DNA of 32,000 nucleotides from assembly GCA_964510585.1 (NCBI GenBank), contig CAZECW010000187.1, positions 1 to 32,000 on the forward strand, given 5' to 3'. The position numbers and the translations under genes were made by a program. Source of the DNA: an uncultured archaeon (lineage in GTDB: Archaea > Asgardarchaeota > Jordiarchaeia > Jordiarchaeales > Jordiarchaeaceae). The first letter of the stretch is position 1. Each line of letters opens with the position of its first letter. Below are positions 19,078 through 20,759 of this stretch, piece by piece. The notes beneath the pieces are model-generated. The model ran no database searches, had not been told where the DNA came from, and was given only the letters and a program-made list of their open reading frames with translations.

Positions 19078-19701
19078 TCATCTTTCTCTATGGTACCTTC
19101 CTCTCTTCTCAATTTCGTATAATCTTTCAATAACCTTCTCTGATTTACTTGTAGCTTTTTTGTAGCCCTCAAGAACCGCTGCAAAGCCGGCTTCCGCATA
19201 GGAATAGTGGGTGCTCTGGAGTGCTCTGCGCATAAGGTGGAGGTCAACTCCCTGATCCTCAACAGCGATGGAGTAATCACCCAATCCGAAGTCAATAAAG
19301 TATACTTTGGAGTTGCTAAGAAGCATATTAGAGGTGGTGAGGTCTCCATGTATAATACCTGCATTGTGTAGGCGGCCGATTAACATTCCAATATGAGTAA
19401 AAAGATCCTTTTTCTCCCGTTCTTCCATGTTTTGAATAATTGTCTTAACCTGCTCTCCCTCTATAAAATCCATTACAATCGTAGCTTCTTCAAGATCTAT
19501 GAAGTAAATCATGGGGGTTGGAACACCTGCCTTTCTTGCGTCTGAAAGTAGGCGGGCCTCCTTCACAGTGCGGTCGTACCTCAGTTTTTCATCAAGCTGC
19601 GGTACTCTGTATGATTTAGGTATTCTCTTCTTTACAATCACCTTTCTACCGCAACATTCCTCTTTATACAGGTATGCTTCGGCGCCCTTTTTGTACAGCA
19701 A
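19078..19701 (-). CDS. bud32: KEOPS kinase/ATPase Bud32
   Basis: KGAEA, RTVKEAR, IIHGDLTTSNM, IDFGL, IEKRGRY; separate from Kae1. Confidence 0.95.
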   Translation of the reverse strand: MLYKKGAEAYLYKEECCGRKVIVKKRIPKSYRVPQLDEKLRYDRTVKEARLLSDARKAGVPTPMIYFIDLEEATIVMDFIEGEQVKTIIQNMEEREKKDLFTHIGMLIGRLHNAGIIHGDLTTSNMLLSNSKVYFIDFGLGDYSIAVEDQGVDLHLMRRALQSTHYSYAEAGFAAVLEGYKKATSKSEKVIERLYEIEKRGRYHRER

Positions 19702-19719
19702 CTATTCTAGCACCCTCCT

Positions 19720-20759
19720 CTAAATCCATGGAATATCCACTTCGTCTAAACGCCATTTTGGGCGCACAAGGCTTTCTTCTACAGTTATAGTTTGCCCACA
19801 CTTGTACGCAAGTATTCCTGTCCAAGCAATCATTGCCCCGTTGTCCCCCGCCAAATCTTGTGGAACAACATAGAAGTTTGCTTCGTGTTCGCTAGAAATT
19901 GCCCTCAACATTTCCTGTAACCTTTTATTTCTCCCAACACCTCCAGTTAATAGAACCTCCTTTTTACCAGTATGTGCAATCGCCCGCTCCGTTACTTCCG
20001 CCAGCATAGAAAAGGCGACTTCCTGTAAACTGTAGCAGAGATCCTCAACTCTGCACTCTTTTATCTTATTTAATGCTGCTGTTAAAAGGCCCGAGAAGGA
20101 TAAATCCATTCCCTTCACTGTGTAAGGTAGAGGAATGTAATTTTTCCCCTCCTTGGAGAGGCTTTCTATTTTCGCTCCACCGGGATGTTGAAGTCCAATT
20201 GCTCTCGCAAATACATCTAACATGTTGCCAATGGCGATGTCTAGAGTTTCCCCGAAGACTCTGTAGCGTCCCTCATCAAAGGCAGTAACCATGGTATTCC
20301 CCCCAGAAACATAAAGGGTAACAGGATCCTTCACATTTGTTGCCAACTTACCTATTTCCACATGAGCTACACAGTGGTTTACGCCCACTAGGGGCACATT
20401 TAATAGGAGTGATAAGGCTCTCGCAGCAGTCGCGGTAGTTCTTAGGCAAGGCCCTTAAGGGAGATAAAGGATAAACCTTTACTTAGCCCCGGGCCTTGAG
20501 AAAAAGCCACCAGATTTATTTCCCTCATGCTTATGTTCGCCTTTTCCAAGGCGCTGCGTATCACTTTTTTAATTACCGCTGCGTGGTGTTGAGCAGCCTC
20601 CCTCGGATGTATTCCTCCCCTAAGAGGAATATACTCATCCCAAACATTTGAGAGAACTACACCCTTATCGTTGACTATGCCGGCTCCGAGTGTATGGGCT
20701 GTGCCTTCCAGTCCCAGACAATTAATGGACTTTTTAAACTCATTATTATCCAAACTCAA
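19720..20759 (-). CDS. kae1: tRNA t6A threonylcarbamoyltransferase Kae1, intron-interrupted: join(complement(20485..20759),complement(19720..20455)), 336 aa after splicing
   Basis: The 5' part ([28 protein letters not shown]) and the 3' part ([40 protein letters not shown]) are in different frames. Removing 29 nt gives 275+736=1011 nt, an open frame reading SQGPGL-GPCLRT. Confidence 0.93.
20456..20484 (-). other. 29-nt bulge-helix-bulge mRNA intron in kae1
   Basis: mRNA: CAAGGCCC GGGG CU^A AGUAAAGG UUUAU CCUUUAUCU CCCU UA^A GGGCCUUG. This gives an 8-bp exon-exon helix, 3-nt bulge, 4-bp central helix (GGGG/CCCU), 3-nt bulge and an intron hairpin; cuts fall after the 2nd bulge nt. Confidence 0.88.

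Follow-up and report, generated by a model that had tools for sequence, protein, structure and literature searches.

Results

A split kae1 gene and its 29-nt insert

The window, by which we mean the whole 32,000-nt stretch of DNA analysed (contig CAZECW010000187.1, positions 1 to 32,000), comes from an Asgard archaeon (Jordarchaeia/Freyarchaeia) and carries on its minus strand kae1, which encodes the threonylcarbamoyladenosine (t6A) synthase of the KEOPS complex. This is the sole kae1 in the genome, G000, and it is divided between two open reading frames (ORFs); as these match consecutive ranges of the TsaD family, they represent one interrupted gene and not two genes. The parts of the gene and of the RNA structure at its break are as follows.

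20759..20442, minus strand: kae1 ORF 1 of the ORF list (Pfam TsaD 8-67 of 264)
20397..19720, minus strand: kae1 ORF 2 of the ORF list (Pfam TsaD 83-264 of 264)
20759..20485, minus strand: kae1 exon 1 (Pfam TsaD 8-67/264, E 6e-15), its last two bases being CU of a Leu codon
20484..20456, minus strand: bulge-helix-bulge (BHB) intron, 29 nt, phase 2 (from the fold and the bulge rule)
20455..19720, minus strand: kae1 exon 2 (Pfam TsaD 83-264/264, E 3e-57), with the stop TAG at 19722..19720
20444..20442, minus strand: TAA stop on the unspliced mRNA, giving a 105-aa product (ORF list and frame translation)
20498..20447, minus strand: whole BHB motif, hBHBh' geometry (fold)
20498..20491 with 20454..20447, minus strand: exon helix, 8 bp (fold)
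20490..20487 with 20461..20458, minus strand: central helix, 4 bp (fold)
20486..20484, minus strand: 5' bulge, CUA (fold)
20457..20455, minus strand: 3' bulge, 3 nt, UAA (fold)
20483..20462, minus strand: inner hairpin (fold)

The first ORF opens at TTG 20759; in an alignment of the start across four species, the TTG that is conserved in the genus is that at 20753, with GGGGA before it. Exon 2 carries the H-x3-H metal-binding motif (NHCVAH) and is 71% identical to its homologue in an intron-free relative, G021. The RNA from 20510 to 20430 folds at -32.2 kcal/mol (z = -3.2). The 3-nt CUA form of the 5' bulge needs the pairs A20483-U20462 and G20482-C20463, whilst the minimum free energy fold leaves 4 nt open there.

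The archaeal splicing endonuclease recognises the hBHBh' motif and cleaves both bulges just past their second base, a rule known from tRNA introns. Applied here, the rule ends exon 1 at 20485, assigns 20484..20456 to the intron and starts exon 2 at 20455, and the cleavage ends named in the original prediction for this locus (20484/20455) match these ends exactly. The joined frame is open and reads ...FSQGPGL/GPCLRTTA... (the slash marks the junction), with the Leu codon rebuilt, and the junction peptide GPGLGPCLR is identical in the Kae1 of G021, with no indel. Two possible 29-nt excisions yield this peptide, and it is the bulge rule that decides between them. We conclude with high confidence that the insert is a genuine archaeal BHB intron in the kae1 mRNA, which would be removed by splicing at the RNA level. 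Public proteins at least 82% identical to Kae1 all consist of the exon 2 ORF (223-245 aa), which shows that the whole genus carries the insert and that its kae1 is cut short by annotation.

The notion of the intron as a repeated mobile element was rejected, since a search of the genome that allowed up to 6 mismatches gave no second copy. The inner hairpin was likewise rejected, by eye, as a mimic of a tRNA anticodon loop directed at KEOPS: its 5-nt loop does not have the U36-A37 pattern.

Distribution and covariation of the intron

We surveyed kae1 in 41 relatives and then in 221 genomes of the phylum, with 27 Asgard families sampled. The locus has 99% protein identity to a Candidatus Jordarchaeia metagenome-assembled genome (MAG), and a closed Freyarchaeota genome belongs to the same genus. 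An intron at the same codon, 13-32 nt in length, was found at 14 loci in four of the 27 families:

family f1, to which this genus belongs: 28-29 nt
sister family f2: 13-14 nt
family f3, Odinarchaeia: 28-32 nt
family f20: 25 nt

The gene is uninterrupted in the other 23 Asgard families sampled, and in 76 of the 80 loci of a wider collection drawn mostly from Bathyarchaeia. Strong purifying selection on both exons is indicated by their identity, which is 85-99% among members of the genus and 66-75% for the other families that have the intron. On the best Kae1 tree the distribution takes three changes, but a single intron clade is not rejected (AU test, p=0.22), so Kae1 phylogeny does not decide between one gain and several.

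Conservation is confined to the BHB core; from one family to the next, the interiors of the introns do not align. In an alignment of the 14 intron-bearing loci, standard pairs occupy 98.2% of the pair cells, against 85.8 +/- 1.8 in 500 shuffles (0/500 as high) and roughly 58% when the partners are slid by one column. Four pairs are altered on both sides, and the covariation score is 0.412 as against 0.175 in the shuffles (0/500). Pair 15-59, which joins the wobble base of a Gly codon in exon 1 to that of another in exon 2, occurs as G-C, U-A, A-U, C-G and U.G; these bases pair in 13/14 intron-bearing but 7/17 intron-free loci (Fisher p=0.007). At the first pair of the central helix, the third base of the Pro codon is G in the 11 loci of f1-f3, whilst the three loci of f20 have C there and a G that compensates for it. 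It is the BHB structure, rather than its sequence, that is under selection, and neither a frameshift error nor a pseudogene nor ribosomal recoding can explain this pattern.

Even the intron-free genes hold GGNCC ... GGNCC in the codons for G-P-G-L-G-P, and several of them fold into a hairpin by this means alone. The exon helix would thus pre-exist, and an insert would need to bring only the partner strand of the central helix and the bulges. This suggests that the Gly-Pro palindrome explains why the site can host an intron, and it could favour long retention or repeated gain alike.

Three other breaks in kae1 look like assembly artefacts or decay and are not introns: a scaffold gap with duplicated flanks in G004 (L005, G004:C185), and frameshifts of 1-2 nt in G154 (L258, G154:C10) and G018 (L259, G018:C121). 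Fusion of Kae1 and Bud32 in some Asgard families is suggested by G019, G093 and G164, where the kae1 match falls in open frames of 575-622 aa; such a fusion is present in Methanocaldococcus.

The machinery for splicing

G000 encodes two EndA paralogues on contigs C157 and C126 (tRNA_int_endo matches of 108 and 80 bits, in open frames of ~206 aa), which is consistent with an (alpha-beta)2-type splicing endonuclease. This is the type described for Asgard EndA, with a broad-specificity L1 loop (PMC5829648), and for the L1 loop of the G000 enzyme we rely on that account of Asgard archaea. There is one RtcB (578 bits), encoded by a gene that itself contains a stop-bearing insert of 10 codons.

Introns are found in 92-95% of the tRNA genes of Freyarchaeia and Atabeyarchaeia (PMC11291895), and interruption of tRNA genes in these lineages is heavy and often multiple (PMC11291895; preprint 10.64898/2026.10.13.758758). 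In the 3.8-Mb, 96%-complete G000, ARAGORN calls six tRNA genes, four of them with an anticodon-loop intron. Most tRNA genes of this genome appear to be too interrupted for a standard finder, in keeping with the published intron load.

The original prediction held that full-length Kae1 needs both EndA cleavage and ligation. Since kae1 is single, its unspliced mRNA runs into a TAA that leaves a product of 105 aa, and two EndA and one RtcB are encoded, full-length Kae1 should indeed depend on cleavage plus ligation.

Inserts in other genes

The same prediction had called for a scan beyond kae1 for further interrupted genes, above all those for RNA modification. Some 14 were found, with no significant bias towards RNA function: RNA and translation genes account for 6/15 hosts, kae1 counted, compared with 6/30 genes drawn at random as background (p=0.17). 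For this census all ORFs of G021, an intron-poor relative of 2.8 Mb, were searched against G000, giving ~1200 clean matches, and inserts were taken from protein alignments and plain folds, without exact splice sites. About 15 of the ~1200 conserved genes (~1.2%), Kae1 included, contain frame-breaking or stop-bearing inserts of 24-33 nt, several of which fold BHB-like. Those other than kae1, all from the comparison with G021, are the following (contig and position in G000).

C4:20565: AhcY
C4:22119: Tyr/Trp-tRNA synthetase
C4:~32860: radical SAM protein
C20:52146: Alba
C56:9204: PPDK/PEP synthase
C58:3765: RtcB
C60:11935: Cys-tRNA synthetase
C72:43826: POR alpha
C73:5710: rpL44e
C113:63560: HisA/F
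C175:7531: ferredoxin
C180:1147: 414-aa protein with no Pfam match in its C-terminal 238 aa, the sole part scanned
C181:4195: aconitase-family protein
C193:53626: AIRS-family protein

A scan for the BHB motif alone at junctions of long ORFs, with or without a codon-usage filter, was discarded, as its counts equalled those of slid-partner decoys (e.g. 4055 vs 3833-4293), and automated selection of one best BHB per census match proved unreliable, giving for example the wrong cut for rtcB. Apparent splits in HdrA/MvhD and TnpB genes were also set aside, since they reflect either genes that are fused in the relative or transposase genes that are broken. In G021, HdrA-like and MvhD (FlpD) domains occur together within single ORFs (496 and 827 aa), whereas at several G000 loci (C76, C150, C188 and C20) they lie in separate frames, apparently neighbouring genes, an arrangement that mimics split genes in homology screens. 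The SecY gene of G000 (C18:31534-31317) has ~147-150 extra in-frame bases without stops relative to G021, which could reflect either a normal insertion in the protein or an intron of greater length.

The gene string and its expression

The intron had been placed amid a same-strand string, rpS27ae-kae1-bud32-rdgB-rpS15-RecJ/GAN-pcc1, that carries three KEOPS subunits, and Pfam agrees. Around kae1 the string comprises:

22001..21474, minus strand: DUF359 gene (Pfam), at the head of the string and sharing base 21474 with rpS24e; DUF359 is the family of the archaeal GTP-dependent dephospho-CoA kinase
21474..21118, minus strand: rpS24e (Pfam)
21086..20910, minus strand: rpS27ae (Pfam Ribosomal_S27, E 6e-19), 150 nt 5' of kae1
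20857..20848, minus strand: AT-rich motif ATTTTATTAT, ~100 nt 5' of the kae1 start, kept in four species of the genus
19701..19078, minus strand: bud32, the KEOPS kinase (Pfam RIO1/Kdo/Pkinase), with a TTG start at 19701
19072..18467, minus strand: Ham1/rdgB, non-canonical NTP pyrophosphatase (Pfam Ham1p_like, E 9e-52), 5 nt past bud32
18418..17963, minus strand: rpS15 (Pfam S13/S15 N-terminal domain and S15)
17958..16492, minus strand: RecJ/GAN-type DHH phosphoesterase (Pfam DHH, DHH-CID and DHHA1)
16504..16253, minus strand: pcc1, the KEOPS dimerisation subunit (Pfam Pcc1, E 3e-7), overlapping the 3' end of RecJ/GAN by 13 nt

Both bud32 and pcc1 are single ORFs (ORF list and Pfam). Elsewhere in the genome sua5 (C71:548-1072, plus strand) and cgi121 (C71:1250-1633, minus strand) adjoin in convergent orientation, without interruption or stops inside their family matches. 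The KEOPS/t6A gene set is thereby complete, with Kae1, Bud32 and Pcc1 in the string and Cgi121 and Sua5 outside it, and kae1 is the one gene of the five to be interrupted.

The kae1 stop lies 18 nt from the bud32 start, and in relatives the two genes are 0-20 nt apart or overlap, so that co-transcription of kae1 and bud32 on one message, as originally envisaged, is very likely and indeed almost certain. Some translational coupling between them is possible. A Shine-Dalgarno-like GGAGG of bud32 itself is found at 19718..19714, 12 nt before the TTG at 19701. The order S27ae-kae1-bud32 is also found without the intron, for example in G021; since intron-free lineages share it, the arrangement of the operon is independent of the intron. 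Upstream of kae1, ATTTTATTAT is a candidate TATA box, and the four-species alignment shows a T-rich block ~35 nt before the start. The gene may have its own promoter, independent of the rpS27ae transcript.

Discussion

Dependence on splicing as a probable by-product of intron spread

Considering these observations together, we think it probable that kae1 contains a real BHB intron whose consequence, the dependence of Kae1 on splicing, is a by-product of genome-wide intron spread and not a regulatory device specific to KEOPS. The kae1-bud32(-rdgB) transcript would fold into the BHB, with its exon helix formed by the palindromic Gly-Pro ... Gly-Pro codons (GGNCC ... GGNCC). The housekeeping (alpha-beta)2 endonuclease would then cleave each of the 3-nt bulges past its second base, and RtcB would join the 2',3'-cyclic phosphate and 5'-OH ends, rebuilding the Leu codon and the GPGLGPCLR peptide 14 codons upstream of H-x3-H. 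Kae1, and hence t6A synthesis, would be reliant on the tRNA-splicing machinery as one outcome of a lineage-wide spread that appears to have placed BHB introns in almost every tRNA gene and in ~1% of the conserved protein genes, rtcB included. Splicing would most likely be constitutive, with selection acting solely to keep the site spliceable. The introns of f2, at 13-14 nt, leave no room for a sensor or regulatory element.

Some observations weigh against this reading. A spliced-length Kae1 was looked for among the public proteins at least 82% identical to it and was not found. A selected regulatory role would likewise predict that the intron be kept for long in an essential gene, as it is in at least three groups. 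The census favours well-conserved genes and misses introns shared with G021, and at n=15 a modest RNA-function bias among the hosts (6/15) is possible.

Alternatives to be weighed

The alternative that survives best is that the intron is kept to tie the output of Kae1 (and of Bud32, through polarity or translational coupling) to EndA/RtcB capacity, so that KEOPS tracks the supply of spliced tRNA, much as has been envisaged for cbf5. The logic is coherent, since tRNAs with a 37/38 intron receive t6A37 only once they are spliced. The dependence of Kae1 on splicing is real as far as can be deduced, the kae1 stop and bud32 start abut or overlap in most relatives, so that Bud32 translation could follow that of Kae1, the intron has been retained in four families with compensatory changes, and the authors of the cbf5 work held a similar idea (PMC2738675). 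However, retention and covariation are expected for any intron in an essential gene, and a BHB as canonical and stable as this one is what efficient constitutive cleavage would call for. Furthermore, 23 of the 27 families have the same operon but no kae1 intron. The original prediction, which coupled KEOPS/t6A expression to tRNA-splicing capacity, therefore fares unevenly: the predicted dependence of Kae1 stands, whilst a dedicated coupling or switch is unsupported, given that the other four of the five t6A genes are uninterrupted, that kae1 shares like inserts with ~14 unrelated genes (~15 mixed hosts in all, with no significant RNA bias) and that the 13-14-nt introns of f2 contain the BHB alone. 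We regard such a coupling as unlikely, and it would matter only if splicing proved condition-dependent at the RNA level.

In a wider form of this idea, EndA/RtcB capacity would act as a global post-transcriptional throttle on essential genes (kae1, rtcB, two aminoacyl-tRNA synthetases, rpL44e, ahcY and others), and the kae1 intron, predating the family split, would have been kept for it. This seems to us quite unlikely, though if true the throttle would represent a pre-spliceosomal way of making gene expression depend on splicing, in the prokaryotes most closely related to eukaryotes.

It had also been proposed that cleavage without ligation, by cutting the polycistronic RNA upstream of bud32, may serve as a switch. 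On this reading EndA would sever the message, and the 3' fragment, left unligated, would uncouple bud32 and rdgB or silence them. A severed intermediate is unavoidable and the genes are tightly packed, but with its GGAGG 12 nt before the TTG bud32 could be translated from the 3' fragment, so the severed message need not silence it, and nothing in the sequence points to regulated ligation. The conserved promoter-like motif upstream of kae1 is neutral in this respect. We consider the switch improbable.

Translational recoding, in which the ribosome frameshifts or hops past the insert with no splicing of the RNA, deserves mention because early cbf5 cases were mistaken for frameshifting (PMC2738675), and the lack of a spliced-length Kae1 among the close public proteins noted above would fit it. 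Inserts of 13, 14, 25, 28, 29, 30 and 32 nt would nevertheless need different shifts, and the 30-nt Odinarchaeial insert is in frame but stop-bearing. What is conserved is a BHB with synonymous-site covariation and not a slippery site, and read-through would add ~10 residues within the invariant GPGLGPC, all of which makes recoding highly improbable. A pseudogene, or a sequencing or assembly frameshift, is barely credible even though true frameshifts of 1-2 nt and a scaffold gap are present in the kae1 of the MAGs G154, G018 and G004, for 14 independent assemblies, including a closed genome of 3.58 Mb, contain the same structured insert, purifying selection on both exons is strong, and kae1 is single-copy and, to our knowledge, universally essential.

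Comparison with known systems

In the literature searched, archaeal coding-sequence introns of the BHB type are documented for cbf5 only, whose pre-mRNA is interrupted in Crenarchaeota (Desulfurococcales and Sulfolobales; Watanabe 2002; Yoshinari 2006; Yokobori 2009, PMC2738675). The two cases have much in common: a short BHB intron in the coding sequence of an RNA-modification enzyme, a host lineage with a heteromeric, broad-specificity splicing endonuclease, and a patchy phylogenetic distribution reflecting gain and loss. The original prediction quoted this precedent correctly, and the negative-regulator role in question was put forward by the cbf5 authors as a proposal only (PMC2738675). 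The present case differs in its host gene, the t6A synthase kae1, and in its phylum, Asgard (Jordarchaeia, Odinarchaeia and one further family). It also differs in that kae1 is not a lone example but one of ~15 or more interrupted protein genes in a single genome, and in that its splicing is deduced from sequence. The conserved intron in this universally essential gene provides a solid second class of example beside cbf5, in genomes whose kae1 is truncated by standard annotation. Taken with the ~14 other interrupted genes, it would mean that in at least one Asgard lineage protein genes routinely carry introns that a protein enzyme takes out, and routine mRNA introns bear on how intron-bearing genes could be tolerated before the spliceosome.

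Archaeal tRNA introns, whether canonical or non-canonical in their BHB and very numerous in Freyarchaeia/Jordiarchaeia (PMC11291895; preprint 10.64898/2026.10.13.758758), share with the kae1 intron the hBHBh' form, 3-nt bulges, a 4-bp helix and the same cut rule, and in these same lineages both are predicted to be handled by the same enzymes, EndA and RtcB. Unlike those introns, whose exon helix is a tRNA stem, that of kae1 is built from protein-coding Gly-Pro ... Gly-Pro codons; excision must keep the reading frame, and translation may compete with folding.

Among eukaryotes, HAC1/XBP1, processed by Ire1 and tRNA ligase or RtcB, resembles kae1 as predicted here in its spliceosome-independent mRNA splicing, its 2',3'-cyclic phosphate and 5'-OH ends and their sealing by a tRNA ligase, and it sets a precedent for endonuclease/ligase splicing of mRNA as a real regulatory switch. 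Ire1, however, is a dedicated stress sensor, whereas the kae1 nuclease is predicted to be the housekeeping EndA, whose frames of ~206 aa leave no room for a sensor domain.

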